Of a DNA stretch of 43,871 nucleotides, positions 1,659-43,321 are shown in pieces. Source of the stretch: a virus (lineage: Duplodnaviria; Heunggongvirae; Uroviricota; Caudoviricetes). Within the stretch, counting starts at the first letter, position 1. The number at the start of each line of letters is the position of its first letter. The stretch lies in the IMG/VR virus record IMGVR_UViG_2537561979_000006. One strand, 5' to 3'. The notes under the pieces are model-generated. The model made no database searches, was not told where the DNA came from, and saw nothing but the letters and a program-made list of their open reading frames with translations. Position numbers and translations under genes: made by a program.

Positions 1659-3788
1659 TTAAGAATCAGCCTGACTCGGGATCAGTTTTTGCCAGATAAC
1701 TGAAACGTATTTTGCCTGGTAACGGGCGTCATCAAGTGCATTATGGCGCTCACCTTCGAATGGAATAGCCGTTCTGGCATCGAAGTCTATGGCTTTCCCC
1801 AGCTCAACGATTGTGCGTACATCGCGATCGTTGTAGTAACGCCACGGGCAGGGGATCCCCTGCCGTTCGTATGAACGGCGCAAAATCGTGTTGTCGAAGT
1901 TGGCTCCATTTCCCCAAACCTGAACAAAAAATTCACCGGAGTTTTCGTCGATAAATTCTCGCAATTGTAACAGTGCATCATCTAACGGGATTTCATCGGT
2001 CATAATGGCAGATTGCGCTTCGCGTGATTGCTTAAGCCACCATTTAATGGTGTCCCGATCAATGACTCCGCCAGCAGTTTCCAGATCGATAGTCTTACTA
2101 AATTCCGGTCCCATATCTCCGGTTTGCGGATCGAAAAATATTGCACCTATTGAGATGATCGGGGCATCAGGATTTTTTCCCATGGTTTCAAGGTCGATCA
2201 TTAGATGGTCACACGTCCTGCTGGTGGATGTGATTTCGTGATGACCGTTCACCTTAATTGGGTGATCTGCCGTCTCGCCAGTTTCATTATCGCTATTGTG
2301 ATGCTGATTGCCGCCAGTGTTCTCCTTGTGTGGATGTTCAGCGCCTTCCATTTCCTCCGGATCATCTTCCTGAACTTCAACCTGATACTCTTCATCGAAT
2401 GTTTCTTGGTATGTTGCGTCGCCCATCACCGCGCCACAATCAGGGCAGTTGCCGCCGCCGGTCTGACCGCAGGCGGTGCAGACTTTTTCCACTTCCTGTT
2501 GCGCTACTGGTTCAGGCTGTTTCGTTTCTGGCTCGTTTTGTAACGCATTTGGACTGTTTTGTTCCGCTTTTTGGTAGTTCCGTTCCGATTCATGCTGGTT
2601 CTGGTTCACAGAATCGCGGGTCTGGAGCCCCTTAACCCATTTCGGATCATTCGGGTCACTAATCCCTTCAACAAATTCACCACGTGATGCAGCAAGCAAC
2701 TTATCGGCGTCAGGCTGGCTGATATTGGCTGCCTGCATAATTTTGTTTACTTCGCCAGCGGTAACTTTTATCGGCTCTGGTTGTTCTGAATCTTCAGCGG
2801 TATCTACATTTTGCGGTAAGCCCGTGTATGTGCCATTTTTTCGGGCAAAATATTCTTCTTTTGTGATTTCAGTGGCGCCAGCAGCCAGTGCCTTATCCAG
2901 ACCAGAGAGTTTGTTTGCGCGACCGTATTTTTCTCCGTCCTTATCTGCGAAGAGGAAATAGAACGGCCCCTCACGCTCTACAGATGGTTCAGCTTCCGGC
3001 GCGGTTTCATTTTTTGGGATATCAGATACCTCAGTTTCCACTGCATCAGTTTGTGTTTCTGATGACTGGAGAACATCAACAGTGCCCAGGTCTGTTTCTT
3101 CATTCTCAAACACGCCCTTTGTCGTCAGGTATTCGCAGATATATTTGTTCAGTGCTACGGGATCTTTGTGAATGTCGATCGGACGCTCACGGACAAGGCC
3201 AAAAATAGTTTGGCGGTCGTAGCGAAGGGCATCAGGCTGTTTGCGCATTGATGCCGAGATACGCTTCCAGTCTTCGCGGTCGTTGTCGATAACTTCTTTT
3301 TTTGCCCAGCGATGGATGCTGCCGTCAATGTTTCCGGCATCCACATCACTAGGCCAGAGAGCGTAGGCCAGTTCGTCATCCAGTGTTTTCCATGTCTGCT
3401 TGTATTCGCGATGAATGGCAGCAATGACCGGGCTGATTTTTCCTGTTGAATTTTCAGTGTACTGTTGATTGGCTCTGGCGCGGGCGAGATCAACAACAGA
3501 CGTGTATTTTCCGGTTTCCTTGCGTTCACCTTCGCGACGTTTTTTCCAGATGCGCATCTCTGCCTGAATTTCGGGCCATTTAGCACCAGGAATACATTTA
3601 TGCTTAACCCACCCAATGGCGTGCAACTTAAGCTCCGGATACATGGCGTTAACTTCTGGCATTTTCATCAACGCTTCAACGATATGTCCGTCGAATGTTG
3701 CCATGTCTTCCTGCAACAATTCCTGTGCGCTAATAACCATAGCGGAACTGTTTGCTGAGAACACCGTGCGGTGTGTTGATGCAAACAA
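1659..3788 (-). CDS. Phage exonuclease with C-terminal DEDDh (DnaQ-like) 3'-5' exonuclease domain and a central Cys4 zinc ribbon
   Basis: 709-aa ORF; C-terminal MIDLETMG...FDNTIL...HNALDDARY motifs match Exo I/II/III of DnaQ-type exonucleases; CTACGQTGGGNCPDCG zinc ribbon; acidic low-complexity linker. Confidence 0.7.
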   Translation of the reverse strand: MFASTHRTVFSANSSAMVISAQELLQEDMATFDGHIVEALMKMPEVNAMYPELKLHAIGWVKHKCIPGAKWPEIQAEMRIWKKRREGERKETGKYTSVVDLARARANQQYTENSTGKISPVIAAIHREYKQTWKTLDDELAYALWPSDVDAGNIDGSIHRWAKKEVIDNDREDWKRISASMRKQPDALRYDRQTIFGLVRERPIDIHKDPVALNKYICEYLTTKGVFENEETDLGTVDVLQSSETQTDAVETEVSDIPKNETAPEAEPSVEREGPFYFLFADKDGEKYGRANKLSGLDKALAAGATEITKEEYFARKNGTYTGLPQNVDTAEDSEQPEPIKVTAGEVNKIMQAANISQPDADKLLAASRGEFVEGISDPNDPKWVKGLQTRDSVNQNQHESERNYQKAEQNSPNALQNEPETKQPEPVAQQEVEKVCTACGQTGGGNCPDCGAVMGDATYQETFDEEYQVEVQEDDPEEMEGAEHPHKENTGGNQHHNSDNETGETADHPIKVNGHHEITSTSRTCDHLMIDLETMGKNPDAPIISIGAIFFDPQTGDMGPEFSKTIDLETAGGVIDRDTIKWWLKQSREAQSAIMTDEIPLDDALLQLREFIDENSGEFFVQVWGNGANFDNTILRRSYERQGIPCPWRYYNDRDVRTIVELGKAIDFDARTAIPFEGERHNALDDARYQAKYVSVIWQKLIPSQADS

Positions 3789-6859: not shown

Positions 6860-8300
6860 GGCTATTGTTAACACCAAGCTGTAATGTCCCCTTTGAACCA
6901 TTCTAAAATGTCCCCAGACAATTCTCTGGGGGATTTTTCATGATCAAAGAGACTGTTACGATGAGTCATAAGGAACTCCACCGACTTCAGATTATTCAGG
7001 AACAAGCTGCGGCACGCATTGGCATTTCTATTCGGCAGGTTAAACGTCTGGTGCAACGGTATAGAAATGAAGGGCCTTCTGGTCTGGTTTCCCACCGACG
7101 TGGAAAGCGTCCTAATAATTCCTTTTCTACTGAATTCAGAGCAACAGTAATTTCACTCCTCAAAGGCCGTTACGCTGATTTTGGACCTACGTTTGCGTGC
7201 GAAAAATTGCGCGAGATACACGGTTTATCTTTATCCGTTGAAACTCTCAGAAAGTGGATGATAGAAGAGGGGTTATGGCGTGAACGCCGTCGTAAAATTG
7301 CCCGTATATATCAACGCCGCATGCGACGACCATCTTACGGTGAACTGATCCAGATTGATGGCTCACCTCATGACTGGTTTGAAAATCGAGGCCCCAGATG
7401 TACACTGATCGTTTTCATTGATGATGCCACCAGTGCGTTGATGGCGTTGCGTTTTGTGCCTGCTGAAACAACCCGGGCTTACATGGAAACCCTCCGGGGT
7501 TACCTTAATGATCATGGCGTACCGCTCGCTCTCTACTCTGATAGACACAGTATATTCAGGGTAAATAACCCAGAGCGGGAAGGTGAGCTGACCCAGTTCA
7601 CTCGTGCGATAAAGACACTGGGCATCGAGCCAATCCATGCCAACAGCCCGCAGGCAAAAGGGCGGGTAGAGCGCGCCAATCAGACACTACAGGACAGGCT
7701 GGTCAAAGAAATGCGGCTTCAGAATATCAGTGATATTGAAACAGCAAATGCATGGTTGCCGACCTTTATTGAAGCCTATAACAACCGGTTCGCTACGTCG
7801 CCTCGTACTACTGATAATGCTCATCTTGATGTGCACCATTCTGAAGAGGAACTGGGTTATATCTTCAGCCTACAGGCGAAGCGCGTTCTGTCTAAAAATC
7901 TCACTTTCCAGTACAAAAGCAGTGCGTTTCAGGTACGCAGTGAGGGCCGGGGATATCGACTTAGGCATTCGGTTGTTACTGTATGCGAGAACTTTGACGG
8001 TGAAATTAACGTTCTGTATGACGGGAAAGCGCTGGGCTGGGAAAAGTATGTTGATGGCCCGGAGCCTATACCACTGGATGATGAAAAGAGTGTCCATGAA
8101 CGAGTGGATAATGCCCGTATTGATTTACGCTCAAAATACTATGTTAAACCTAAAGCTGACCATCCCTGGCTTACGCGCCGAACGCAAAGTCATCAGCAAG
8201 TTAAGCCCCCGAAGTTACCTAAAAAGAAGCCTGATCCCGATAAAAAAGATTGAAACCAAGATCGATTCGGTTGAGTGCATATCCATTCATAGGGTAGATT
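6860..8300 (+). mobile_element. Insertion sequence carrying the DDE transposase; boundaries approximate
   Basis: Single transposase gene interrupting the Qin-like region between the dicC side and flxA; terminal inverted repeats could not be resolved by eye. Confidence 0.4.
6940..8253 (+). CDS. DDE transposase (rve/integrase-core type; ISNCY/IS1202-group-like or IS481-like)
   Basis: 437-aa ORF with N-terminal HTH (IGISIRQVKRLVQRYRNEGPSGL), DDE-like residues in IQIDGSPHDW / LYSDRHSIF / ERANQTLQDRL, and a basic C-terminal tail. Family assignment is tentative. Confidence 0.75.
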   Translation: MIKETVTMSHKELHRLQIIQEQAAARIGISIRQVKRLVQRYRNEGPSGLVSHRRGKRPNNSFSTEFRATVISLLKGRYADFGPTFACEKLREIHGLSLSVETLRKWMIEEGLWRERRRKIARIYQRRMRRPSYGELIQIDGSPHDWFENRGPRCTLIVFIDDATSALMALRFVPAETTRAYMETLRGYLNDHGVPLALYSDRHSIFRVNNPEREGELTQFTRAIKTLGIEPIHANSPQAKGRVERANQTLQDRLVKEMRLQNISDIETANAWLPTFIEAYNNRFATSPRTTDNAHLDVHHSEEELGYIFSLQAKRVLSKNLTFQYKSSAFQVRSEGRGYRLRHSVVTVCENFDGEINVLYDGKALGWEKYVDGPEPIPLDDEKSVHERVDNARIDLRSKYYVKPKADHPWLTRRTQSHQQVKPPKLPKKKPDPDKKD

Positions 8301-15092: not shown

Positions 15093-16136
15093 CTAGGGTG
15101 TGGACACATTGTGGACACTCTGACCACCATTGGCACCCTTCAACGGGTTAAGCGAAATCGCGTCCTGCAGGTACTGAGGAGCGAAGTGCGCATAGACCAT
15201 TGTCTGCGCAATTTTCGTATGACCTAAGATCCTCTGCAGTGTGATGATGTTGCCCCCGTTAATCATAAAGTGCGTCGCGAAAGAGTGTCGTAGCGCATGT
15301 GTTGCTTGTCCGGCCGGTAAATCGGGCTTAACCTCTTTGAGGGTTCGCCTGAAGTCAGCATAACTGGCCTCAGGAAACAGAAAACCTCGTGTTTTGCCGA
15401 CTACGTAAGCCGCAACGTCATCAGAGATCGGGACCGTGCGCGGTGTGTTGGTTTTCGTCTTAACGAAAGACACCCGGTTATGAATCACATTCTCCGCCTT
15501 CAATCGCGCAGCTTCTCCCCATCTTGCTCCGGTACTCAAACACAAAACCGCAATTTTACGATTATCACCTGAGAGCGCAGCAAGTAAGGCGTCAATTTCC
15601 TCAAGAGTGAGATAGCCCGTTTCGGCTGTCTGCTCTTTCAGTTTTTTGAATCCCCTGAATGGATGCTCACCGTTATACAGTTCTGACTCAATCAGGGTTG
15701 TGAACATCCCACCTAGCGTGATCAGGTCGCGGTTGATGGTAGTTGGCTTAATACCTTCACCCCGACGTTGAGCACAATATTGCGTTATCAGGCTCTTGGT
15801 GATCTGGAAAGCGCAAGGGTTTCCGGTCATCGTTTCGAAACGCTCAATTTTCCTGAGATACGATTGACCGTGCTCCTCATGTTTACCTTTCAGCTTCCAC
15901 CATAACTCTTTCAGTTCCGACAATTGGCGTTTGTCCGTTGGTTTTGAAAGCCATTCCTTTGAGTGATGGTTATATTGAGTATGCTTTTCAAAAGCCATCG
16001 CCTCGCTTTTCTTGTCGAACTTCCGACGGATGCGTTTTCCGTTACGCCCAGCCGGTCTAATGTCCACTTCATATCGACCATCATCGAGCTTTTTAACAGA
16101 CATAAAGCCTCCCGATGATGTTACTGCGTACTTCAA
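15093..16136 (-). CDS. int: P2-type tyrosine integrase
   Basis: Close match to P2 Int (KKLDDGRYEVDIRP...GARWGEAARLKAEN...HALRHSFATHFM...LGHT...VYAHF); the true start is probably the internal Met at 16103. Confidence 0.9.
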   Translation of the reverse strand: MKYAVTSSGGFMSVKKLDDGRYEVDIRPAGRNGKRIRRKFDKKSEAMAFEKHTQYNHHSKEWLSKPTDKRQLSELKELWWKLKGKHEEHGQSYLRKIERFETMTGNPCAFQITKSLITQYCAQRRGEGIKPTTINRDLITLGGMFTTLIESELYNGEHPFRGFKKLKEQTAETGYLTLEEIDALLAALSGDNRKIAVLCLSTGARWGEAARLKAENVIHNRVSFVKTKTNTPRTVPISDDVAAYVVGKTRGFLFPEASYADFRRTLKEVKPDLPAGQATHALRHSFATHFMINGGNIITLQRILGHTKIAQTMVYAHFAPQYLQDAISLNPLKGANGGQSVHNVSTP

Positions 16137-18442: not shown

Positions 18443-18706
18443 ATGAGCATACACATCGAGATTAATAACCAATACGTCATCACCAGTGACCGCTATCAAT
18501 TCATTTTGCAGGAAAAAAAGACCGCAACATCCGGGAAGAATGAAGGTAAGGAATGGTTGGACGTTGTGGGTTACTACCCAACTATCCCTAAGCTTATCTC
18601 AGGCTTGGTTTTGCATGATCTTTTAACCAGCGATCTTACCGGCTTCGCAGCTTTGGAAGCTCGGATTGAACGCATGGGTAAGCAATGTCTGGACGCTTTT
18701 AAATAA
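18443..18706 (+). CDS. P2 orf81-like protein
   Basis: 87-aa ORF immediately preceding gene A. Confidence 0.5.
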   Translation: MSIHIEINNQYVITSDRYQFILQEKKTATSGKNEGKEWLDVVGYYPTIPKLISGLVLHDLLTSDLTGFAALEARIERMGKQCLDAFK

Positions 18707-18707
18707 T

Positions 18708-20702
18708 ATGTCCAACGAACCTCGGGGGCGTGTTGCCCCCTCGCCACCACCACCATTTTTGAAGGGCACCAGTGATTCATTCGTTGGTGCTTATCCCTGG
18801 AATAATGTCTACAAAGAGGCTATAGGCCGCGACAGACCCCTTACACGTGGCGAATACCGTCAGGTGCAAGGTGTTTTAGGTAAAGTTAATCGCCTGCCAT
18901 ATGTCTTAAAAACATTGTTTAACTCGCGGTATGACTTCATCCGTCGTACAAAAAGTCCACTTCATGGTTTCTATTTCCTCAAGAACACCGTTGAGCAAAG
19001 GGTGGGGCCGCGTCTTGAGCGGGTTAATCAGTTAAATGGAATGAACGAGACTGCATCGCTTCTCTTTCTGAGCGAGCGCGAAAGCTATTCACGATTAGCG
19101 GGTATGAGTGACAAAGCGCTCAAAAAATTTGCTGCTCGTATTGCTTCGCAGCTCTATGTTGCTTATGAGGAACTTAGCGACGCATGGGCAGATGCTCATG
19201 GCGGTAAAGAAACCCTTTTCACCGATGAAGCGCAGGCGCACTTATATGGTCACGTTGCCGGTGCAGCTCGTGCATTCAACATCACCCCAATGTTCTGGAA
19301 GAAATACCGCAAAGGGCAAATCATGATCCGCCAGGCATTTTCCGCTATCGCTCGTCTGATTAACGATGAATGGTGGATTAACCAGTTTAAGGCGCAGCGT
19401 ATGCGCTGGCACGAGGCTTTGCTGATTGCCGCCGGTGAGGTGAATAAAGACCGCTCCCCATACGCCAGCAAAACGGCGATCCGTGATGTACATTCTCGCC
19501 GTAAAGCTAATTTCGAATACTTGAAGTCGTGTGACTTGGAAAACAAAGTCACTGGTGAGCGCATCGATCTCATCAGCAAAGTCATGGGAAGTATTTCAAA
19601 CCCCGAAATCCGTCGTATGGAACTGATGAATACTATCGCAGGGATTGAACGCTATGCGGCCGGTCAGGGTGACGTCGGGATGTTTATCACTATCACCACG
19701 CCGTCGAAGTATCACCCGACACGTCAGGTTGGAAAGGGCGACAAAAAGACGGTGCAGCTTAACCACGGATGGAATGAAACCGCCTTTACGCCCAAGGATG
19801 GACAGCGGTATTTGTGCCGTATCTGGAGCCTGATGCGTACAGCATTTAAAGATAACGGTCTGCAGGTCTACGGGATGCGTGTTGTTGAGCCGCATCATGA
19901 CGGGACTCCGCACTGGCATATGATGCTTTTTTGTAAACCAGAGCAACGCAAACAGGTCACCGAAATCATGCGCCGTTATGCCTTAAAAGAAGATGGCGAT
20001 GAAAAAGGCGCTGCAGCACAGCGCTTTGAAGCTAAGCACCTCAATCAAGGTGGCGCAGCCGGTTACATTGCAAAATACATCGCGAAGAATATCGATGGTT
20101 ACGCGCTCGATGGTCAGGTCGATCACGACACCGGCAAACCTCTAACCGATACCGCAGCAGCTGTAACCGCATGGGCGTCAACATGGCGTATCCCGCAATT
20201 CAAATCAATTGGCCTGCCGACGATGGGCGCGTACCGCGAACTGCGCAAACTGCCTCGCGGGGTAAGTATTGCTGATGAATTTGATGAGCGTGTCGAGGCG
20301 GCCAGAGCTGCAGCTGATGAAGGTGAATTTGACCGGTATATCGCAGCGCAGGGTGGGGCGAATGTTCCACGCGATAGCCAGACCGTCCGTGTGGCTCGTA
20401 ACGTGACTGATGAGGTCAACGCCTACGAAGAGGATATAGAGAGAGTTGTGGGCATCTACGCCCCGCACTTGGGCTCTGAGTTGGTACGTGTTACCCGGAC
20501 AGCCGAATGGCGCATTGTTCCAAAACTTTTGGCCGTTGAGCCTTTGACTTTAAAAAGCGGCATTGCCGCGCCTCGGAGTCCTGTCAATAACTGTGGGTTG
20601 GTTAAATCTTTCTCTGGCTCTAGTCAACTTTCCATATGTGCGGTTGAGAACGCTCAAGTGAAAGTGAGGCAGTTAATTCATCCCTTAAGAAGCTATGTAT
20701 AG
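18708..20702 (+). CDS. A: P2 gpA-like rolling-circle replication initiator (HUH endonuclease)
   Basis: HUH motif (PHWHMMLF) and Tyr motif (YIAKYIAKNIDGY); about 664 aa against ~761 for P2 A; the C-terminal ~35 residues look unrelated and AT-rich. Confidence 0.85.
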   Translation: MSNEPRGRVAPSPPPPFLKGTSDSFVGAYPWNNVYKEAIGRDRPLTRGEYRQVQGVLGKVNRLPYVLKTLFNSRYDFIRRTKSPLHGFYFLKNTVEQRVGPRLERVNQLNGMNETASLLFLSERESYSRLAGMSDKALKKFAARIASQLYVAYEELSDAWADAHGGKETLFTDEAQAHLYGHVAGAARAFNITPMFWKKYRKGQIMIRQAFSAIARLINDEWWINQFKAQRMRWHEALLIAAGEVNKDRSPYASKTAIRDVHSRRKANFEYLKSCDLENKVTGERIDLISKVMGSISNPEIRRMELMNTIAGIERYAAGQGDVGMFITITTPSKYHPTRQVGKGDKKTVQLNHGWNETAFTPKDGQRYLCRIWSLMRTAFKDNGLQVYGMRVVEPHHDGTPHWHMMLFCKPEQRKQVTEIMRRYALKEDGDEKGAAAQRFEAKHLNQGGAAGYIAKYIAKNIDGYALDGQVDHDTGKPLTDTAAAVTAWASTWRIPQFKSIGLPTMGAYRELRKLPRGVSIADEFDERVEAARAAADEGEFDRYIAAQGGANVPRDSQTVRVARNVTDEVNAYEEDIERVVGIYAPHLGSELVRVTRTAEWRIVPKLLAVEPLTLKSGIAAPRSPVNNCGLVKSFSGSSQLSICAVENAQVKVRQLIHPLRSYV

Positions 20703-20833: not shown

Positions 20834-21763
20834 ATGAGTGTTGCAAGACATCATCATTTTTTATCTCAATGTTATTTGAAAGGCTTTACAAGCAACGGGG
20901 GGAAAAAATCAAAATTAACTGTAATAGATTTAAAGGAGCGCAAAACTTTTGAAAGTAATACACGTAATGTCGGGGGTGTGAGAGATTTTAACCGATTAGA
21001 ATTGGATGGAGTTGATCCAAACTATCTCGAAAGTTCTCTTGCAGAGTTCGAAGGCAGTGTCGCCACTCATCTAAGGAAACTTGAGGAGGGCAAAGATTTT
21101 TCAGGCGAAACAAAAGATATCATTTTAGAGTTTATTTCCTTACTTGCGATACGCACGCCTGCTCAGCGAGAGCATTTATCATCGCCATTGAAACAAATAG
21201 CAAAGTTCATAATGAAATCTTCTGTTAGTTCGGCTGAGCGTTGGGAAGATTGCAAATTAGCTTATGAGAAAGAAAAGGGAGAGTCTTTGCCATATGATCT
21301 CGCTTACGAGAAAATTAAAGATTATGTTGATGGTGATAATTTCGAAATCAATGTAATCAGAGAGTTCATGATAGGCATGGAAATGCAATGTGTACCTGTA
21401 ATTGCTGAGCTGTTGCACCAACGCGACTGGTCACTTATGACCATATCTGATGGGCAAGGAACATTTATAACTTCAGATAACCCAGTTTGCTTAATGTGGA
21501 CTAATCCTGAATTATCACAAGGTCCTTATTCCCCGGGGTTTGGTCTAAAAGACACTTTAGTTTTGTTTCCAGTATCAAAAAATCTTCTTTTGGCAGGCGA
21601 GTTTGATGGTCATGAGGGGGTATTTAGTTGTAATGACGAGCAGGTTGCCATCTTTAACACTTCAGTCATCCGGCATACCGCAGAAAGAATTTTTTCAGCC
21701 AATGGAAATTTCCATTTTTTAGACGCAGCTAAAAGAATGAAGCAAGGTAAAAGCCTAGTTTGA
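20834..21763 (+). CDS. DUF4238-like protein; candidate anti-phage defence cargo
   Basis: 309 aa, AT-rich; N-terminal HHHFLSQCYLKGF and central FITSDNPV motifs resemble the DUF4238 signatures as I remember them; sits in the P2 A-to-cos (tin/old) cargo slot. Confidence 0.7.
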   Translation: MSVARHHHFLSQCYLKGFTSNGGKKSKLTVIDLKERKTFESNTRNVGGVRDFNRLELDGVDPNYLESSLAEFEGSVATHLRKLEEGKDFSGETKDIILEFISLLAIRTPAQREHLSSPLKQIAKFIMKSSVSSAERWEDCKLAYEKEKGESLPYDLAYEKIKDYVDGDNFEINVIREFMIGMEMQCVPVIAELLHQRDWSLMTISDGQGTFITSDNPVCLMWTNPELSQGPYSPGFGLKDTLVLFPVSKNLLLAGEFDGHEGVFSCNDEQVAIFNTSVIRHTAERIFSANGNFHFLDAAKRMKQGKSLV

Positions 21764-21978
21764 TAGTGGTTTTTTATGGGTTTCCGGGAAGAATTCTACT
21801 CTTAACCAGTGTTCGTAAAATGATTACCTGTTATAAGAGTTTTTCATTTTTAGGTGCGCCTAATAATGCATTTAATTGCATGTGGTTTTATAGGGGACGA
21901 TTCGCCTGCTCTATCCAGCGCTGGTGTGATTTCAATGCTAACGTGCATGTGCATCAAAATAGCCCCATTAAGCGGGCA

Positions 21979-21997
21979 GGCGAGGCGGGGATAGCAC
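21979..21997. other. P2-type cos site (19-nt cohesive-end sequence)
   Basis: GGCGAGGCGGGGATAGCAC, one mismatch from the P2 cohesive end GGCGAGGCGGGGAAAGCAC as I recall it; located just beyond the 3' end of Q as in P2. Confidence 0.6.
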
Positions 21998-22162
21998 TGC
22001 GCGCCGGGTGTGGTGACAGGATTTATTTTACGCGTCTGTGCGCGTCGTGGGGGCGCGCTGTGATGTGAAGTCGGTCAAGGTGATGTCGGGCGTTTGCGTC
22101 GCGTGCGCGGCGTCTGGCTTGCTCTGAGAATGTGCCGCCCGTAGGCGGCATTTTTGGCAGGT

Positions 22163-23188
22163 TTAGTCGGTCTCTATGTTGTAATCCTTAAAGCGGATCA
22201 CCTCCATCCCGAGCCAGTCGTTTATCTCTTTAAACCGCTCCTGCAGCGGCGTCAGCTCGTTACGCACAAACACCCGCGCCACCTTCTCGATATCGCCCAT
22301 CGAGCCGATATTTTCAGGCTTGCCGCCCATGAGCTGGAACGGCACGCGGTGCGCATCAAGCAGGTCGGCGGCGCTCACCTTCTTGATGTTAAAAAAATCA
22401 TCCTTCGTGGCGACTTCACTCAACGGCACGATCTTAATGCCGTCCGGTTTCCCGTTCGGGGCGTAGAAAAACAGGTTTTTAAAATTCCCGAGTCCTTTCG
22501 AGTCGCGCATCGCGGAGCGCAGCGCCTCGACGTCGGTGCTGCTTTGCGCCGCGTCGGTCACGTACATGATGTAACCCGCGTGCGCGCCGTTCTGGTAATA
22601 CTTGCGACGAAACAGCGTGGCGGATTCATTCAGCCAGGCGGAATTGAGCGCGCTCAGGTATTCCGGCATCCCGTAGAGCTCCTGATTGATATCAGGCTCA
22701 AGCAGATGAAACACCGAATCGGGGGCGAACTGGTGCGGGTGCGTATAGTCCGACACGTACCAGTAAACGCCAGCTTCGACACCACGGCGGGTGTATTTGG
22801 CCGGGGAGGTTTCCAGTTTAAAAAGCTGGCCGGTCACGCTCATGCGCTTCTCGAGATAGCCGTTGGCGAAGACCAGATAATCGAGCACAAGGCGGCTGAA
22901 GTCCTGACGAGACAGCAACGGGTGCGGGATAAAGGTGCTGGTCAGAATGTTGCGCTTAACGTAAATCGGGGAGCTGTGGTGCACGGCGGCGCGCAGGCTT
23001 TTTGCCAGTCCCGAGAAATTGACCGGCGGCTCGTACCATTTGCCGTTATTGATGCACTCGACATAGTCGAGGATGTCGCGGCGATCCAAAACGGGTGACG
23101 GCTCACCAAAGGTGAACGCCTCCATTTTCTGCGACGCGCTGGCGGCCATGTTGGCCTGTTTTGGCTGTTTCTTTTGGCGTTTTTTCAT
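22163..23188 (-). CDS. Q: P2 gpQ-like portal protein
   Basis: 341 aa, length and order as in P2 (Q then P, divergent from O). Confidence 0.85.
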   Translation of the reverse strand: MKKRQKKQPKQANMAASASQKMEAFTFGEPSPVLDRRDILDYVECINNGKWYEPPVNFSGLAKSLRAAVHHSSPIYVKRNILTSTFIPHPLLSRQDFSRLVLDYLVFANGYLEKRMSVTGQLFKLETSPAKYTRRGVEAGVYWYVSDYTHPHQFAPDSVFHLLEPDINQELYGMPEYLSALNSAWLNESATLFRRKYYQNGAHAGYIMYVTDAAQSSTDVEALRSAMRDSKGLGNFKNLFFYAPNGKPDGIKIVPLSEVATKDDFFNIKKVSAADLLDAHRVPFQLMGGKPENIGSMGDIEKVARVFVRNELTPLQERFKEINDWLGMEVIRFKDYNIETD

Positions 23189-23189
23189 C

Positions 23190-24959
23190 TTAGTTAATAT
23201 CCAGAATTGAACTTGATTGCATACCGCTTCCAGCGGAAAGCGGCTCGTTTAACAGGGCGTGCATGGTCGCCCACGCGATATCCGCGTGGCTGGCTTCCTC
23301 GCTGCGGCTGGCTTCATAGGTCGCGCTGCGGCCGCTGTTGGTCATGGTTTTGCGGATGGCCATAAATGACTGAGTGATGTCGGTCGCACCGGCGTCATAT
23401 TCCAGACATCCGCGCCTGATGGTGTCTTTCGCTTTCAGCACCATTGCGGTTTTCATTTCCGGCGTGTAGCGGATAGCGCGCGCCGCCGGGAAGAATGAGC
23501 GCACGAGCTGGTAAACACCCTGGCCGATGCCGGTCGCATCGATGCCGATATAGTCGACGGTGTATTTCTCGGTAAGCGCCCGGATGGCCTCGGCCTGTGC
23601 GGCAAAGTCCATGCCTTTCCACTGGTGACGCTCAAGGATGCGGAACTTGCCACCGGCAACCAGCGGCGGAGCCAGTACCGCACAGCCTGCGCTGTCACCG
23701 GTGTGTGACGGGTCGTAGCCAATCCAGACTGGGCGCCAGTTAAACGGACGGTCGGCGAACGGCTCGAAGTCCTCCCATTCTTCCATCGCATCGACCATGC
23801 AGCGCTGCAACTCCTCGAACGGGAATACCGACGCCTTGTCGTCGACGAACTCGCACATAAACAGGTTACGGAAGTCATCCGCGCTGTTTTCCTGCTTAAG
23901 CTGATCGAGGTTAAACAGGGTGCAGCCACCGGCGAGCGCATCCTCAATGGTGACAATCTGCCGCCACTGGCCGTCACCGCACAGCACGCCACCGGTAAGC
24001 GCCTGATGACTGATATCGATGTCGACACGTTCGTCGCGGTTGCTGCGGCCCCGGTTAAACAGCTCGCCTGACCAGAACGGGTAAGCGCCATGCGCCAGCG
24101 TCGATGGGGTCGAGAAATAGGTGGTGCGCAGGTGTGACTGCGAGGCCATGCCCGAGGCGACTTTGCGCAGCTTCTGAAAATTGGGGATCCAGAAAATTTC
24201 ATCGACATACAGGTCGCCGTTGTGGCTCTGCGCGGTGTTGGAATTGGTCCCGAGAAAAATCAGCTCAGCGCCATTGTTGCCGATGACGATCGGGTCGCCT
24301 GACAGGTCGACGTCAACCAGACGGGCAAAGGCGATGATGTACTTACGGAACACGTAAGCCTGCGTCTTACTGGCAGATAAAAATATCTGGTTTTGCCCGG
24401 TCTTAAGCGCGCGCAGGAGTGACTCGCGCGCAAAGTAGAACGTCGCGCCAATCTGGCGGGATTTCAGGATGTGGCGGATGCGGTGCTCTAACCCTGCTTT
24501 ATGCCAGCGGAGCTGATACCCAAACGACTGGTCGAAGAAAATCTCTTCCAGCTTTTCAATCGCTTCATCACTGAAGAAATTGCGTTTCGGCTTTTTGCGA
24601 TCCCCTTTGTTACGGCTGGCGATATTGGGGTTTAAATCCACCTCGTTTCCGGTCTGGCCGTAGCGGTTAATGCGCGCAAGCCGCTCCATCTGGCGCGACA
24701 AAAAGTCCGCGACTTTGAAGTCATACGCGGTCAGGTCTGGCTTAGCGTAGAGCTGGATAAGCCGCGCCTCTAATGTCGATTCCACGCGGTTAATCGGCGC
24801 GGTTTCTCCCCATCCATCCCGCTGTTTCCAGCTCTGCACGGTCGGGCGCTTGAGCTGCAGCATGTCGCAGATTTGCGGCACGGCGAACCCCTGCCAGTAC
24901 AACAGCCGCGCGCGCCGTCGCGGGTCATTTAACAGAGAAAGGTCAGTTGAAATGGTCAT
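23190..24959 (-). CDS. P: P2 gpP-like terminase large (ATPase) subunit
   Basis: About 589 aa from MTISTDLSLL...; P2 gene order. Confidence 0.85.
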   Translation of the reverse strand: MTISTDLSLLNDPRRRARLLYWQGFAVPQICDMLQLKRPTVQSWKQRDGWGETAPINRVESTLEARLIQLYAKPDLTAYDFKVADFLSRQMERLARINRYGQTGNEVDLNPNIASRNKGDRKKPKRNFFSDEAIEKLEEIFFDQSFGYQLRWHKAGLEHRIRHILKSRQIGATFYFARESLLRALKTGQNQIFLSASKTQAYVFRKYIIAFARLVDVDLSGDPIVIGNNGAELIFLGTNSNTAQSHNGDLYVDEIFWIPNFQKLRKVASGMASQSHLRTTYFSTPSTLAHGAYPFWSGELFNRGRSNRDERVDIDISHQALTGGVLCGDGQWRQIVTIEDALAGGCTLFNLDQLKQENSADDFRNLFMCEFVDDKASVFPFEELQRCMVDAMEEWEDFEPFADRPFNWRPVWIGYDPSHTGDSAGCAVLAPPLVAGGKFRILERHQWKGMDFAAQAEAIRALTEKYTVDYIGIDATGIGQGVYQLVRSFFPAARAIRYTPEMKTAMVLKAKDTIRRGCLEYDAGATDITQSFMAIRKTMTNSGRSATYEASRSEEASHADIAWATMHALLNEPLSAGSGMQSSSILDIN

Positions 24960-25125
24960 GCTTGCCTCGTTTTTGGTGTGACGTGGCAAGGCTAAGGAAA
25001 TAGGGGATTATTCGCGCTAAGTGCCTGTTGTGTCAGATCTAATCAGATCGTAAGCGGTGGCTGATGCGGGTCAGAGTCGGGAAACTAACCCCGACCCGAA
25101 AACCCAACATCAGGACACCTGAAAA

Positions 25126-29797: not shown

Positions 29798-29930
29798 TGG
29801 CGACCTGAGTGCTGATATTCGCAGGCTCGAGCACGCGCTCGCGGCCTGCGCGCTGCAGGTTGAAACCGTCAAAGACTGTCAGGATAAACTCGATGAAGAA
29901 AGCACGCAGCCTGCGCGAAGCGCTGATTAA
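29640..29930 (+). CDS. lysC: LysC-like o-spanin lipoprotein
   Basis: 96 aa overlapping the lysB 3' end in another frame; signal peptide with Cys (LMLCAGC); proline-rich. Confidence 0.65.
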   Translation: MRMKPYAAGIALNCLMLCAGCTSAPVAPPPVIVYSTCPKVSYCPMPGSEPVINGDLSADIRRLEHALAACALQVETVKDCQDKLDEESTQPARSAD

Positions 29931-30360
29931 AGCCGTTCCGCAGCTTGAAACGAACCCCGAAATGATGCGCATCTTTGCCGATGAGGGGAATATCGATGCA
30001 CGTCTCGCGGCCTCGCTGTCGCACGAGAAAATTTATACGCTGAATGTGATCGTGTGTGACTTTGTGGGCGACCCTGATCTGATTTTCGTGCCGGTGGCCG
30101 CATGGCTCAGGGAAAACCAGCCGGATATCTGCACGCTCGATGACGGCCGCATAAAGGGCTACCGTTTCCAGATGGATTTGAACGACGGGGACAGCATCGA
30201 TATCAGTATCAGCCTGCAGCTCACTGAGCGAACCCTCATCAAAGAGGAAAACGGCGCGCTGCACGTAAGCTATGCCCCTGAGCCGCCGCTGCCGGAGCCC
30301 GCCACCCGGCCAAAAGAGCTCTATATCAACGGCGAACTGGTGAGCAAATGGGATGAGTGA
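29893..30360 (+). CDS. R: P2 gpR-like tail completion protein
   Basis: 155 aa from MKKARSLREAL..., same length as P2 R. Confidence 0.8.
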   Translation: MKKARSLREALIKAVPQLETNPEMMRIFADEGNIDARLAASLSHEKIYTLNVIVCDFVGDPDLIFVPVAAWLRENQPDICTLDDGRIKGYRFQMDLNDGDSIDISISLQLTERTLIKEENGALHVSYAPEPPLPEPATRPKELYINGELVSKWDE

Positions 30361-30814
30361 ATTTAAGCCCTTTGACGACAGGCTCGATGGTCTGATTGCT
30401 GCCCTGTCACCGGCAGCGCGCCGGAAGCTGGCCGGTGAGATAGCAAAAGAGCTGCGCAAGGCGCAACAACAACGCATCAAACAGCAAAAAGCCCCGGATG
30501 GCTCGCCGTATCAGGCGCGAAAGCGTCAGCCTCTCAGGGCTAAGAGCGGACGGATTAAACGGGCGATGTTCCAGAAGCTCCGCACCAGCCCCTACATGAG
30601 AGCCACTGGCAGTGAAAATAGTGCTGTTGTGGAGTTTACCGGTAAAGTGCAGCGCATCGCGCGTGTCCACCAGTATGGTCTTGAGGATCGGCCAAACTCC
30701 TACGCCAGTAACGTGCAATATGCAAAACGCCAGCTACTCGGTTTGAGTCGGTACGATAAAGATTTTATTGAAGATATTATCTATGGTTATTTAGATTGCA
30801 ATATGTATTTGTAA
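30353..30814 (+). CDS. S: P2 gpS-like tail completion protein
   Basis: 153 aa; the last ~20 codons are AT-rich, suggesting the moron boundary lies within the 3' end. Confidence 0.8.
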   Translation: MSEFKPFDDRLDGLIAALSPAARRKLAGEIAKELRKAQQQRIKQQKAPDGSPYQARKRQPLRAKSGRIKRAMFQKLRTSPYMRATGSENSAVVEFTGKVQRIARVHQYGLEDRPNSYASNVQYAKRQLLGLSRYDKDFIEDIIYGYLDCNMYL

Positions 30815-31098
30815 ATAAGATTTAAGTGTGTTATGTGTTGTATTTATTGCCAGTAAGTCATAAATGTTCTATCTTCACTATCTAATTGTCTTGGGTGTTT
30901 TTATATTATTTGATTGTGATGGGGTAATGTCCTCATTACACCTTTTTCGATAACATGTTCGGGAGTCTAGGCGTTTGCCGTATTAGAACGATTTTTTTAA
31001 ATTAGCATATCAGATTTATTGTGATAGATATGTTTTTGTTGTATTTTTAACACCCTCAGATTTTTCTTTCCCTTTTTTAAATTTTAACATGTTGTGCT

Positions 31099-32913
31099 TT
31101 GATGAATGGAGTTAGAATGAAGATAATAAATGCTTTATTTTCGACAGTAACGGTTGACCTAAAAAGAAAAACTTTTTATTTGGATTTGTTATTTCTGTTT
31201 GTTTGTGTATGGACGCTAATAGCCTCAGGTTCGGAGGCTCAATATTATCTCTTTAAGTTTATTAATAGTGATAGTTCAACACTCTACGGTAGTGTATTTG
31301 AAGATGCGATTGCGCGTATACCAACCTTTAATGAGTATGTTAAAGGTGCTTATTCATTTTCCGGCAGTTATGGTTTTTTAGCTGCTCTGATTATAGTTGT
31401 TGTGGCTTTATTTTATCAGACTACTGTTCAAATATTTATAGTTAGTATTATTAGTTCGGCGTTTGGGCTAACAGTAACGGATTTCTTGATGTTTGCTTTT
31501 AATGGAACTCTAACGACACAAGCAATGATAGAGTGTGTTATGGCAAACGCTTTGGGGTCACCTATAATTGCAAGCTTTATTGTTTTGCTTTTTTATATAA
31601 AAAAGTTTTTATTTAATGTGTCAAGCATTAATCTGGCTCTCAGGTATATATCAAATTATGTTGTTTACTCAATAATTTGTTTTTTGATTTTGTTTGTTAC
31701 TTACTATATCGTGTGTTTCTTTTATAGACCTACAGCAGTAAATTTTTCAGTCTCTACGTCTGAAGAGTTTTCTGGTGATTACTTCCTAAGTGATAAGAAT
31801 GATGTCTTAAAAGAAGCTAAGGGTTCTTTGTTAAAAGATCGATTTTCGCTATTAAACTCACCAGTAAAGTTAAATGGAACAATAAATGTTTTTGGTGAGA
31901 TCGATTCTATACTCTCAAAATTTAATGCGAGCGATGTCTATACTGTAAGAGTCTTGCCTTTATTAAACTGTATTGATGGGGGGGCAATTAATGCAGCGCT
32001 TGCTGACTATTTAAGTTATGAAGGCGTAAGGGGGTTTTCTATTAAATCTTCAGAATCAATGACTTTGATTACCTTTGGTGATAAGGCGGGATATGTTAAA
32101 AGTAATGATGAGCTCGTTAATATGTTTACTGTCAAAAAAAATAATAAATCGGGGTTTGATATTACTAAAGTTAATGATGGAGTGTTTAGTTATTATCCTT
32201 CTGAATCGAGTGGGAGCATGTATGTCGCTACTGGAGTGACTGATTTTAAAGGTGACCAGAGTAAGAAGGAAGTGAAGTACACGTTGGATGTAAATGGTGT
32301 GAAAAAAATATTCCATGTGGATGTGAGTAGGCTGCGCGCGAAAAATGCAGAAAGAAAATTACAGTGTCAAATTGCTTCATTCACAAGTTCATCCAACGAT
32401 GTATACATTGATGCAGGAGAGGCTGTATATGTTGGCGTACTTATCAAACCTATTCTTAATCAAAAGAATGAATATTTTTCACTTTTTAGCGAACGTGATA
32501 ATAAATTCGACGTCAAAGGGAAATTGCTATATGTACAGGCAAAAAATGTTTCGCGAGAAAACGTAGTAGGGCATTATGTTACAAAGGGATATTTGAACGG
32601 CTTTATTCTTCATTCCTTTGATAAGTTATCAATAGATGGGAAGAATGTTGAATCAAATAAAATGGATAATCTAATGGTGATGGGGGAGGGGATTTATGGG
32701 CATGTATCTGCGGACAATAATTTAGTTATTAGTGGTAAAGCCGATCTCTTCTATAAAAATAGATTGCGGCAAAACAAAACCTTATGGGAAACTTCGAGTG
32801 ATAATACATTAATCTTGGGTGGTATTGGAGCTTTAATGGTTTCCTTGTTGTTGTGGTGTGTAAATAGAATATATTCCTCTTTGAAGAAAAATGAAGTTAT
32901 TAATAGTTTTTAA
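31099..32913 (+). CDS. Polytopic membrane protein of unknown family encoded by an AT-rich moron
   Basis: 598-604 aa (probable start at the ATG at 31117, which has a GGAG RBS); about five N-terminal TM helices, a ~350-aa hydrophilic domain and a C-terminal TM anchor; strongly AT-rich; terminator-like hairpin 13 nt downstream. Confidence 0.75.
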   Translation: MMNGVRMKIINALFSTVTVDLKRKTFYLDLLFLFVCVWTLIASGSEAQYYLFKFINSDSSTLYGSVFEDAIARIPTFNEYVKGAYSFSGSYGFLAALIIVVVALFYQTTVQIFIVSIISSAFGLTVTDFLMFAFNGTLTTQAMIECVMANALGSPIIASFIVLLFYIKKFLFNVSSINLALRYISNYVVYSIICFLILFVTYYIVCFFYRPTAVNFSVSTSEEFSGDYFLSDKNDVLKEAKGSLLKDRFSLLNSPVKLNGTINVFGEIDSILSKFNASDVYTVRVLPLLNCIDGGAINAALADYLSYEGVRGFSIKSSESMTLITFGDKAGYVKSNDELVNMFTVKKNNKSGFDITKVNDGVFSYYPSESSGSMYVATGVTDFKGDQSKKEVKYTLDVNGVKKIFHVDVSRLRAKNAERKLQCQIASFTSSSNDVYIDAGEAVYVGVLIKPILNQKNEYFSLFSERDNKFDVKGKLLYVQAKNVSRENVVGHYVTKGYLNGFILHSFDKLSIDGKNVESNKMDNLMVMGEGIYGHVSADNNLVISGKADLFYKNRLRQNKTLWETSSDNTLILGGIGALMVSLLLWCVNRIYSSLKKNEVINSF

Positions 32914-32925
32914 TTGATTCAGGAA

Positions 32926-32946
32926 GGCGGGTTCGTCCGCCTTTCT
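32926..32946 (+). terminator. Terminator-like hairpin after the moron gene
   Basis: GGCGG-gttcgt-CCGCC followed by TTTCT; the T-tract is weak. Confidence 0.45.
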
Positions 32947-33033
32947 AATAATCTCAATTCCTTGCCTGTTGTTCCATTCCTGACAAAACTTCGCTCGATT
33001 GCCGATGAATTTACCAAGCGGCATCCTTTCCCC

Positions 33034-33675
33034 ATGAATAATCTAAATTCTCTGCAGGAAATCGCACGCGCGATCCGCAACCTTATCCGCACCGGCATCG
33101 TGACCGACGTCGACCACGACGAGGGGCTGTGTCGTGTCCAGACCGGCGGCATGCAAACCACCTGGCTGAACTGGCTGGCCTGTCGCGCCGGTCGCTCGCG
33201 CGTATGGTGGGCTCCGTCCGTCGGCGAGCAGGTGCTTGTACTTGCTGTCGGCGGCGAGCTCGATACGGCCTTTGTGCTGCCCGGCATTTTCTCTGACGAC
33301 AATCCCGCGCCGTCAGCCTCCCCTGATGCGTTTCACATGTCCTTTCCTGACGGGGCGGTTATCGAGTATGAGCCCGAAAACGGCGCGCTCACCGTGTCAG
33401 GTATCAAAACCGCTGACGTCACCGCGTCGGATTCCATTACGGCCACCGTACCGGTGGTGCTGGTGAAAGCGTCGAGTCGTATCACGCTCGATACGCCGGA
33501 GGTGGTTTGCACCAACAAGCTTACGACCGGCACGCTCGAAGTGCTGAAAGGCGGGAAGATGAGCGGGAGCATCGAGCACACCGGCGGGATACTGAAATCA
33601 AACGGCGTGCAGGTGGATAACCACGCGCACGGCAACGTACAGAGCGGCGGAAGCTGGACAAAGGGGACGCAATGA
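33034..33675 (+). CDS. V: P2 gpV-like baseplate spike protein
   Basis: About 213 aa from MNNLNSLQEIARAIRNLIRTG...; conserved spike core. Confidence 0.85.
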   Translation: MNNLNSLQEIARAIRNLIRTGIVTDVDHDEGLCRVQTGGMQTTWLNWLACRAGRSRVWWAPSVGEQVLVLAVGGELDTAFVLPGIFSDDNPAPSASPDAFHMSFPDGAVIEYEPENGALTVSGIKTADVTASDSITATVPVVLVKASSRITLDTPEVVCTNKLTTGTLEVLKGGKMSGSIEHTGGILKSNGVQVDNHAHGNVQSGGSWTKGTQ

Positions 33676-41926: not shown

Positions 41927-42058
41927 GGGGGATATTGGTGCTCATACGCACTCCGTTGCGATTGGTTCACATGGACACACCATCACCGTTAACGCTGCTG
42001 GTAACGCGGAAAACACCGTCAAAACATCGCATTTAACTATATTGTGAGGCTTGCATAA
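41919..42058 (+). pseudogene. 3' remnant of a side-tail-fibre gene, frameshifted
   Basis: Encodes ...[29 protein letters not shown]; the conserved ending [11 protein letters not shown]-stop is present but in another frame; an A4 run at 42021-42024 would need one more A. There is no upstream stf body: the frame runs back into the T gene. Confidence 0.6.
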
Positions 42059-42633
42059 TGGCATTCAGAATGAGTGAACAACCACGGACCATAAAAATTT
42101 ATAATCTGCTGGCCGGAACTAATGAATTTATTGGTGAAGGTGATGCATATATTCCGCCTCATACAGGTCTGCCAGCAAACAGTACCGATATTGCACCGCC
42201 AGATATTCCGGCTGGCTTCGTGGCTGTTTTCAACAGTGATGAGTCATCGTGGCATCTCGTTGAAGATCATCGGGGTAAAACGGTTTATGACGTGGCTTCC
42301 GGCGACGCGTTATTTATTTCTGAACTCGGTCCGTTACCGGAAAATGTTACCTGGTTATCGCCGGAAGGGGAGTTTCAGAAGTGGAACGGCACAGCCTGGG
42401 TGAAGGATACGGAAGCAGAAAAACTGTTCCGGATCCGGGAGGCGGAAGAAACAAAAAACAACCTGATGCAGGTAGCCAGTGAGCATATTGCGCCGCTTCA
42501 GGATGCTGCAGATCTGGAAATTGCAACGGAGGAAGAAATCTCGTTGCTGGAAGCATGGAAAAAGTATCGGGTATTGCTGAACCGTGTTGATACGTCAACT
42601 GCACAGGATATTGAATGGCCAGCACTGCCGTAG
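42058..42633 (+). CDS. tfa: Tail fibre assembly protein (Tfa)
   Basis: 191 aa; conserved Tfa C-terminus ([33 protein letters not shown]); its start overlaps the stf stop (TAATG). Confidence 0.8.
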
Positions 42634-42730: not shown

Positions 42731-43321
42731 TTATATGTCAGGTGTCTGAAGTTTTGCTTTGGCTCTTAAAATGGTTTGCCGCGAGGTTTTGAATTCCCGG
42801 GCAATGGCACTTATACTTACACCTGACTTAATTCGTTCGAATACCGCCTGTTTCTGTTCTTCATTTAACACAGGTGGTCGACCAAAACGTTTCCCTGCGC
42901 CGCGGGCTCTTACTATCCCGGAATGAGTGCGTTCAAGTAAAAGGTCTCGTTCAAATTCAGCGACTGCTGAAATTACTTGCATCATCATTTTTCCTGTTGG
43001 ACTGGTCAGGTCAATGCCCCCCAATGCTAAGCAATGCACTCTGATACCTGTTTCGGTCAGTTGTTCCACTGTTTTCCTGATATCCATTGCATTACAACCA
43101 AGGCGATCCAGTTTTGTCACAATCAATTGATCACCACATTTCAGGCGAGCAAGCAACCGGTTAAAACCAGGACGCTCACTGGTTGCTGCTGAGCCGCTAA
43201 TGTGTTCTTCGATTATTTGCTGAGGTTTGATTTTAAAACCTGCACTTTCGATTTCCCGGCGTTGATTTTCGGTGGTCTGATCCAGCGTTGATATCCGACA
43301 GTAAGCAAAAATTTGAGACAT
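42731..43321 (-). CDS. pin: Serine recombinase / DNA invertase (Pin/Gin/Hin family)
   Basis: 196 aa; N-terminal catalytic-serine region (YCRISTLDQ) and C-terminal HTH; adjacent to the stf/tfa segment. Confidence 0.85.

Follow-up and report, generated by a model that had tools for sequence, protein, structure and literature searches.

The S/V insert and its gene

We analysed the IMG/VR virus record IMGVR_UViG_2537561979_000006, a stretch of 43,871 nucleotides (nt) from a virus of the Caudoviricetes (hereafter the window, to whose first letter all unlabelled positions refer), which contains a P2-like prophage whose head, lysis and tail genes lie 3' of the integrase, gpA and the portal and terminase genes. 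Between the tail genes S and V, this prophage carries moron-type single-gene cargo in a recognised insertion slot of P2-like phages. The cargo gene encodes a protein of 598 amino acids (aa) that belongs to no known family, is predicted to reside in the inner membrane and may protect the lysogen against other phages. The features on which the analysis turns are listed below.

15093-16136, integrase
18666-20702, gpA
22163-24989, portal and terminase genes
29809-30360, gpR (Pfam)
30353-30814, + strand, gpS tail-completion gene (Pfam Phage_tail_S, E-value (E) 2e-36; drop in GC content; alignment with L019, L017 and ENT4)
30815-31116, + strand, AT-rich non-coding leader of the cargo gene
30915-30950, + strand, terminator-like hairpin of 10 bp followed by CCTTTTTCGA (hairpin with T-run at 30915-30940; consensus terminator scan)
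31108-31111, + strand, GGAG ribosome-binding site, 5 nt before the ATG at 31117
31117-32913, + strand, cargo gene of 598 aa, predicted orphan inner-membrane protein with six transmembrane (TM) helices and a periplasmic beta domain
32921-32946, + strand, GC-rich hairpin after the cargo gene, its stem beginning 8 nt after the stop codon
32967-33033, + strand, conserved backbone upstream of V, comprising a TGTTGT...ACAAAAC element and the V leader (alignment)
33034-33675, + strand, gpV baseplate spike gene (Pfam Phage_base_V and Phage_spike)

An earlier note, made from the letters of the window, had described conspicuously AT-rich DNA between S and V. Across positions 30750-33000, the island of about 2.2 kb indeed has a GC content of 0.28-0.36 compared with 0.55-0.63 in the backbone, a deviation from phage composition of the kind looked for in moron cargo, and Pfam matches confirmed the identities of gpR, gpS and gpV. 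The same note had set the limits of the insert at 30815 and 33033; the AT-rich insert itself stood up to analysis and its exact extent did not, since aligning the region with that of related phages gives about 30745-32966 for the variable module. The left edge, from alignment with L019, L017 and ENT4, falls within the final ~20 codons of S, which are already AT-rich and differ in sequence from those of related phages. At the other end, the segment 32967-33033 is shared even with ENT4, which holds different cargo, and thus marks the right boundary of the module. No terminal repeats resembling those of insertion sequences were found around the insert, no Rfam family within it and no tRNA in the window.

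The S/V interval, known for orf30, is one of the three moron regions of P2-like phages (PMC6823313). In our census of P2-like phages, run as the earlier note had proposed, the slot was empty (66-70 nt) in four phages, namely 186, RCIP0057, Midge and fiAA91-ss, and was filled in three others by unrelated single AT-rich genes on the opposite strand, none of which is named or matched in PADLOC:

L012 2063-3127, opposite strand, ENT4 slot gene, 354 aa, PIN_12
L029 1810-2874, opposite strand, vB_YenM_31.17 slot gene, 354 aa
L028 2132-2917, opposite strand, P24A7b slot gene, 262 aa

Because the interval is empty or differently filled among related phages, it is a genuine insertion site with variable cargo, in agreement with the proposal that it is a recognised slot holding different cargo here.

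These observations bear on whether the gene is a component of the phage life cycle, such as a lysis-control protein or a virion or injection accessory that lies in the late region by chance. Its orientation is that of the late operons and it sits between tail genes, as such a component would. The four empty slots, however, indicate that the gene is dispensable, its base composition is foreign, no deposited phage genome carries it, and the family is not confined to phages, with homologues also in a Tn7-like element, on a plasmid and in islands. We regard this explanation as effectively refuted.

Start site, leader and flanking hairpins

The S/V interval holds a single long open reading frame (ORF), 31099/31117-32913 on the + strand, as had been noted earlier. 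The ATG at 31117 is the supported start, given the GGAG element with its 5-nt spacer and the fact that every homologue aligns from that methionine, so that the product is 598 aa long; this, too, agrees with the earlier assignment. At a GC content of about 33%, roughly 7% of codons would be stops, and by our arithmetic a 598-codon open frame would arise by chance with a probability of ~1e-20. A chance origin of the ORF is therefore very unlikely, and its full-length homologues, together with a ratio of nonsynonymous to synonymous substitution rates (dN/dS) of 0.19, add support.

The leader is ~85-90% conserved in L019, which carries an allele 87% identical, and no conserved upstream element was found among more distant homologues beyond ~30 nt before the ATG. 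The hairpin at 30915-30940 sits ~100 nt past the stop codon of S, inside the AT-rich insert, and may end transcription of the late O operon and thereby shield the cargo gene from read-through. A stable fold is predicted for the hairpin at 32921-32946 (-18.3 kcal/mol, z -3.2). It is conserved in L019, with a comparable hairpin and T-run in the Citrobacter allele. It had been described previously as a hairpin and T-tract starting at 32926, 13 nt after the stop codon; the stable hairpin holds, its stem starts at 32921, and its T-tract (TTTCT) is weak and not called by the consensus terminator scan.

A predicted six-helix membrane protein with a periplasmic beta domain

Hydropathy and the secondary structure of an AlphaFold model both matched the architecture proposed in the earlier note, with five N-terminal TM helices, a hydrophilic domain of about 340-360 aa and a C-terminal TM helix. 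The six helices span residues 15-50, 83-100, 103-129, 134-166, 173-203 and 564-591, approximately; periplasmic loop 1 (aa 51-85) contains two short helices, and an all-beta segment of ~340 residues (204-547) separates TM5 from TM6. The corresponding parts of the gene are as follows.

31159-31725, + strand, predicted N-terminal five-helix membrane bundle, aa 15-203, with near-invariant Q42, Y57, D122, N144 and G147
31480-31482, + strand, codon of D122 (TM3)
31726-32757, + strand, predicted all-beta periplasmic domain, aa 204-547
31969-31971 and 32365-32367, + strand, codons of C285 and C417, a conserved cysteine pair
32758-32805, + strand, juxtamembrane segment, aa 548-563, carrying R551-x-N553-x-T555-x-W557-E558, the most conserved stretch of the protein
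32806-32889, + strand, predicted sixth TM helix, aa 564-591, followed by a short basic cytoplasmic tail

The topology prediction that had been called for returned six helices with both termini in the cytoplasm (N-in/C-in). Over an alignment of 143 family members, to which all conservation counts below refer, the density of lysine and arginine was 0.13-0.24 in the predicted cytoplasmic segments and 0.04-0.06 in the predicted periplasmic loops, and the beta domain contained exactly two cysteines in 136/143 members. By the positive-inside rule and the oxidising nature of the periplasm, the large domain would be periplasmic and is probably disulfide-bonded.

The AlphaFold model obtained from the 143-sequence alignment was confident (predicted local distance difference test (pLDDT) 91.8; predicted template modelling score (pTM) 0.84), whereas that from an alignment of 14 sequences was mediocre (pLDDT 70.8). 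The modelled sequence, P0001, equals the window protein except for P445L. Profile self-comparison of the protein revealed no internal repeat. By their helix positions, Q42, D122 and N144 are 7-12 residues in from the periplasmic ends of TM1, TM3 and TM4, respectively, which suggests that the conserved polar residues gather at the periplasmic side of the membrane.

An undescribed superfamily with a conserved membrane-proximal core

A word-indexed search retrieved 14 clusters, all from Enterobacterales, of ~598 aa and annotated as "hypothetical". An exhaustive profile search extended the set to 286 representative clusters, 207 of them at E<=1e-10, nearly all 570-630 aa long and matching end to end. 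The members span Gamma-, Beta- and Alphaproteobacteria, including Pandoraea, Paraburkholderia, Glaciimonas, Acidocella, Methylosinus and Rhizobium, and none has a functional name. On this sequence evidence, the protein belongs to an undescribed superfamily of ~600-aa proteins with a 5TM-beta-1TM architecture.

The window protein has every residue conserved in the superfamily, among them D122, the cysteine pair and the RxNxTxWE motif. D122 and C417 were present in 143/143 members, followed by T555 and E558 (141/143 each), Q42, G147 and C285 (140/143 each), Y57 and W557 (139/143 each), R551 (138/143) and N144 (131/143, with Asp in 11 more). The beta domain had no conserved residues of a catalytic type, its invariant positions being Gly, Cys, Phe and Pro. 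Conservation was highest in the juxtamembrane segment and decreased through the proximal beta region (491-547) and the TM bundle to the distal beta region (204-490); accordingly, identity between the window protein and the L017 allele was 74% in the juxtamembrane and proximal beta part, 57% in the TM bundle and 38% in the distal beta part. The conserved functional core, as judged from these alignments, is the membrane-proximal part of the protein and not its hydrophilic domain. Compared with the closest allele, dN/dS was 0.04 in the proximal module and 0.20-0.25 in the distal domain (0.19 overall, as given above), which indicates that the protein is functional and constrained by purifying selection.

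The family is rare. The close clade was found in 1/100,044 species-representative genomes (Xenorhabdus beddingii) and on three IMG/VR contigs, as expected for strain-level accessory cargo. Three divergent queries found no homologue among 50,697 deposited phage genome records, and megablast found none in complete E. coli genomes.

Searches against known families

The earlier statement that the protein has no recognisable family was borne out. Searches of the window protein against Pfam, NCBIfam, PADLOC and PHROGs produced no significant match, and 80 diverse superfamily members scanned singly revealed no recurring family. PDB sequence profiles, searched with the 14- and 143-sequence alignments, returned only noise (best E 0.085). 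A Foldseek search with the AlphaFold model, another of the checks proposed earlier, found no match among the viral predicted structures of BFVD (TM-score <=0.11). The protein thus has a confidently predicted structure without a fold relative in the searched libraries.

Several candidate memberships were considered and rejected. For the GT-C glycosyltransferases, weak matches to PMT2, PimE and ALG9 did not recur and were gone with the better model; a GT-C core needs at least 7 TM helices and an invariant acidic motif in loop 1, whereas the protein has six helices, position D52 is Asp in 74/143 members, and the invariant Asp lies in TM3. For acyltransferase-3 proteins of the NeaT/Oac type, Pfam did not find the PF01757 domain in the window protein or the 80 members. 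Toast-rack domains (DUF4097/DUF2154) gave only isolated weak matches, E 0.096 and E 0.024. A ZorAB/MotAB-like stator was set aside given a single gene in all contexts, no PADLOC match and no OmpA-like domain; D122 is an invariant acidic residue inside a TM helix, as in stators, a resemblance and not evidence of membership. No match to a transporter family was found by Pfam, NCBIfam or the member scans.

The orphan status and the placement of the conserved residues are relevant to the main rival of the reading favoured below, that the protein is a lysogenic-conversion enzyme modifying an envelope component (lipopolysaccharide, O-antigen, enterobacterial common antigen, peptidoglycan or phospholipid) at the periplasmic face of the inner membrane. 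D122, Q42, N144 and the R551/E558 motif would then make up the active site, which would act on a lipid-linked substrate while the acceptor is bound by the beta domain, and the altered surface would confer resistance to serum or phagocytes or the loss of a phage receptor. The clustering of conserved polar residues at the membrane-periplasm interface resembles that in membrane-embedded transferases, and NeaT provides a precedent, as neaT, a rare AT-rich gene in a P2-like moron slot, encodes a polytopic membrane acyltransferase with effects on surface properties and virulence (PMC3573123). The NeaT-type acyltransferases and the GT-C enzymes are, like the window protein, polytopic with periplasm-facing conserved residues. 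Yet the GT-C signals were no longer seen with the confident model and were not repeated in the scans of other members, six TM helices fall short of the GT-C core, and no acyltransferase-3, sulfatase-type or other transferase family is matched. The lack of conserved catalytic residues in the beta domain also speaks against an enzyme, and in none of about a dozen distinct contexts did polysaccharide, Gtr-type or lipid-carrier genes lie close by. We consider a conversion enzyme unlikely.

Genomic contexts of the homologues

In all contexts the gene was solitary and ~600 aa in product length, with a long upstream non-coding region and a hairpin past the stop codon. Homologues occupied the P2-like S/V slot in the window, in Citrobacter L001-4 and in L016, L017, L019 and L020. 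The core genes of L017 are 86-94% identical to those of the window, whereas its cargo allele, in the same slot, is 49% identical, a gap that indicates allele replacement. In L009 and L018, which belong to a distant P2 lineage, the homologue was found instead in the interval between the portal gene and gpA. This interval is a validated P2 defence hotspot, in which DUF4238 was validated as a single-gene defence against T7 (PMC9122126), and further defence hotspots have been reported within late genes (bioRxiv 10.64898/2026.02.27.708500).

Beyond P2-like prophages, one homologue lies within a Tn7-like element and one, a distant member, on a Rhizobium plasmid, where it is placed between RES-Xre and PIN toxin-antitoxin pairs. 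The Yersinia ruckeri homologue lies in an island together with SIR2, a HerA/DUF87 ATPase, MobA and a shufflon. The Cronobacter homologue is found between VapBC and ParDE, in a TraX context and near a DUF4238 gene ~3.5 kb away (L011 13341-14342). Other copies are located between Tlde1 and HipA (Pantoea), at the end of another prophage (Xenorhabdus), next to HEPN_AbiU2 and D5 primases (Glaciimonas), and beside ParDE and an inovirus (Pandoraea).

Some neighbours were seen more than once. A ParDE toxin-antitoxin pair directly adjoins the homologue in both Cronobacter (L010 10279-10822) and Pandoraea (L022 6730-7283). A pair formed by a KTSC-domain gene and a large ATPase gene lies within a few kb of the homologue in Yersinia ruckeri (L005 1501-3329) and Rhizobium johnstonii (L015 15874-16546), two very distant hosts; in Yersinia the ATPase is of the HerA/DUF87 type. 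In two distant members, a small ORF directly follows the homologue (L014 9012-9248, 78 aa; L015 9744-10040, 98 aa), and that of L014 overlaps the homologue's stop codon; such an ORF could be a branch-specific partner gene. Neither small ORF has a significant Pfam match, and the window's gene has no equivalent.

Some of these surroundings would suit another envelope role, namely immunity to a bacteriocin, a tailocin or an effector of the type VI secretion system (T6SS), entry exclusion in conjugation, or a mobile envelope-stress sensor or transporter. The Pantoea copy adjoins the Tlde1 gene, which is of a T6SS effector type, and the Yersinia and Cronobacter copies are in conjugative or mobilisable contexts (MobA, TraD and shufflon genes; TraX). 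The TM helices are rich in polar residues, and the isolated Toast-rack matches noted above point the same way. None of those neighbours recurs, however, and no transporter family is matched. Immunity and exclusion proteins described to date are also small and occur linked to the system that they serve; the gene studied here is always solitary. Such a role therefore seems to us improbable.

A candidate envelope-level anti-phage protein

The earlier note had suggested superinfection exclusion, abortive infection or lysogenic conversion. Our findings are consistent with this suggestion and do not separate its options, and it is strengthened by the homologues located in the gpA-portal hotspot, in the Tn7-like element and close to genes for AbiU, SIR2/HerA, DUF4238 and toxin-antitoxin pairs. 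The prophage of the window itself has a DUF4238 gene in its main hotspot. An anti-phage function is favoured because the gene is mobile, autonomous and maintained, because its product combines a conserved core with a variable distal surface, and because it is found repeatedly where anti-phage genes accumulate. The reading we prefer, quite possible though short of probable, is that the protein acts on its own against phages from within the envelope, with a variable periplasmic part as its sensor and a conserved core in the membrane. The insert would then be a self-contained, horizontally mobile, single-gene module protecting the lysogen at the cell envelope against phages and possibly against other invading DNA.

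In this proposed mechanism, the six-TM protein would sit N-in/C-in in the inner membrane, and the fast-diverging distal beta region would serve as a specificity or sensor surface that meets an infecting phage at its tail tip or ejection proteins, or meets the resulting envelope damage. The membrane-proximal beta subdomain and the RxNxTxWE segment would couple sensing to the helix bundle, in which the invariant, buried D122 may form a polar site with Q42 and N144 in the outer half of the membrane. The output might be a gated leak of ions or protons that collapses the membrane potential, amounting to abortive infection, which taken singly is on the unlikely side, or a physical barrier that keeps the phage genome from crossing the inner membrane, amounting to exclusion, which is a little less likely still. 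We slightly favour the leak, as a protein that binds a variable host partner would be less expected than one with an intrinsic activity to keep residues invariant in three proteobacterial classes.

A more specific form of this idea, to which we give a low likelihood, is that the family represents a new class of single-polypeptide immune sensor-effector, in which a hitherto unseen, disulfide-bonded periplasmic beta fold detects the tail tip or ejection proteins of the phage and the RxNxTxWE segment acts as a latch that opens a proton or ion path at the invariant TM Asp. Infection would thereby be detected and aborted, or entry prevented, while the phage DNA is still outside the cytoplasm, and P2-like phages, Tn7-like transposons and islands would have carried the family into Alpha-, Beta- and Gammaproteobacteria.

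Several points weigh against an anti-phage protein. Guilt by association is weak evidence here, since hotspots and islands also carry virulence and surface-modification genes. Examples are cytolethal distending toxin and partition genes (PMC9122126) and neaT (PMC3573123). An invariant membrane Asp facing the periplasmic leaflet would be just as expected of an enzyme with a lipid-linked substrate, and the proposed polar cluster is based on helix positions rather than measured distances. No region has a dN/dS above 0.25, and none above 1, leaving positive or diversifying selection on the distal domain unsupported. In PADLOC-DB v2, the window protein had 0 matches at E<=10 and the 80 members had only single weak ones (best E 0.0084); in PHROGs, the best E was 0.051 for the window protein, and 1/80 members matched a PHROG of unknown function (E 0.0044). 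A promoter search gave 10 promoter-like sites compared with 8.8 expected in shuffled sequence, none of them rising above the chance level.

Comparison with known systems

By its genome architecture, the gene is typical P2 moron or hotspot cargo; by its protein, it belongs to no known family. It resembles the cargo of P2 (orf30 in S/V; tin-old and DUF4238 in gpA-portal; Z/fun) in its site, its AT-richness, its single autonomous gene with a hairpin and its absence from sister phages. By contrast, its sequence is unrelated to orf30, tin, old, fun or the cargo tested so far, and compared with orf30 (261 bp) its product is far larger (598 aa) and membrane-embedded.

In function, its closest analogues would be two groups, the small superinfection-exclusion proteins and the envelope-level defences Zorya, SNIPE and Kiwa. 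P22 SieA, T4 Imm and Sp, and HK97 gp15 are phage or prophage inner-membrane exclusion proteins of ~80-200 aa that act alone at the envelope. The window protein is likewise a single membrane protein whose context suggests such a function, but it differs in its large periplasmic domain, shows no sequence or fold relation to them, and belongs to a family that is also present on non-phage elements in three proteobacterial classes. KwaA of Kiwa is a membrane-embedded component of an envelope-level defence, and stator subunits of the MotB/ExbD type, relatives of ZorB, have a conserved TM Asp that D122 recalls, as a likeness only. Among these membrane-embedded defences, which work at the site of genome entry or sense it, Zorya ZorAB depends on ion flow through its motor (PMC11890865), and SNIPE is a further envelope-level system (bioRxiv 10.1101/2025.11.03.685801). 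Unlike Zorya, SNIPE and Kiwa, the window protein is a single protein without a cytoplasmic nuclease or tail, a peptidoglycan-binding domain or partner genes, and it has no sequence or fold relation to them; PADLOC gave no matches to ZorA, ZorB, KwaA or any TM effector.

Prophage hotspots have proved to be a source of new immune systems, most of the validated ones being cytoplasmic and acting on nucleic acids or nucleotides. Self-contained systems at the level of the envelope are few, some being exclusion proteins of very small size and the others machines built from several genes. Hotspot cargos without annotation are numerous, and among them this 598-aa candidate is well defined and unusual in its architecture. 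What is new is an undescribed protein family and predicted fold as hotspot-borne candidate immunity. If it is a defence protein, it would offer a tractable single-protein model for sensing or blocking phage entry from the periplasmic side; if it is a surface modifier, it would be a new enzyme family for lysogenic conversion. Either reading gives a testable model to one recurrent "hypothetical" cargo of P2-like phages, with a small set of invariant residues open to direct mutation (D122, the C285-C417 pair, R551, T555, W557 and E558).

Other features of the window

The prophage also carries, in its own gpA-portal hotspot at 20834-22068, a DUF4238 gene (309 aa, Pfam E 1e-39) and an overlapping ORF of 102 aa. 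To the left of the prophage, the segment 20-8253 has a lower GC content (0.39-0.49) and looks like a separate island abutting it, and at the other end the segment 42058-43321 occupies the place of P2 U and D and may represent an invertible segment of fibre genes or else the point where another element joins. These two segments contain the following genes.

20-1315, - strand, second tyrosine integrase
1659-3788, - strand, 709-aa protein with a C-terminal Rv2179c-like 3'-5' exonuclease domain (PDB exodeoxyribonuclease 8kel, E 1e-6)
6940-8253, transposase-like gene
42058-42633, tail-fibre assembly (Caudo_TAP) gene, after the tape-measure gene
42731-43321, - strand, resolvase/invertase gene

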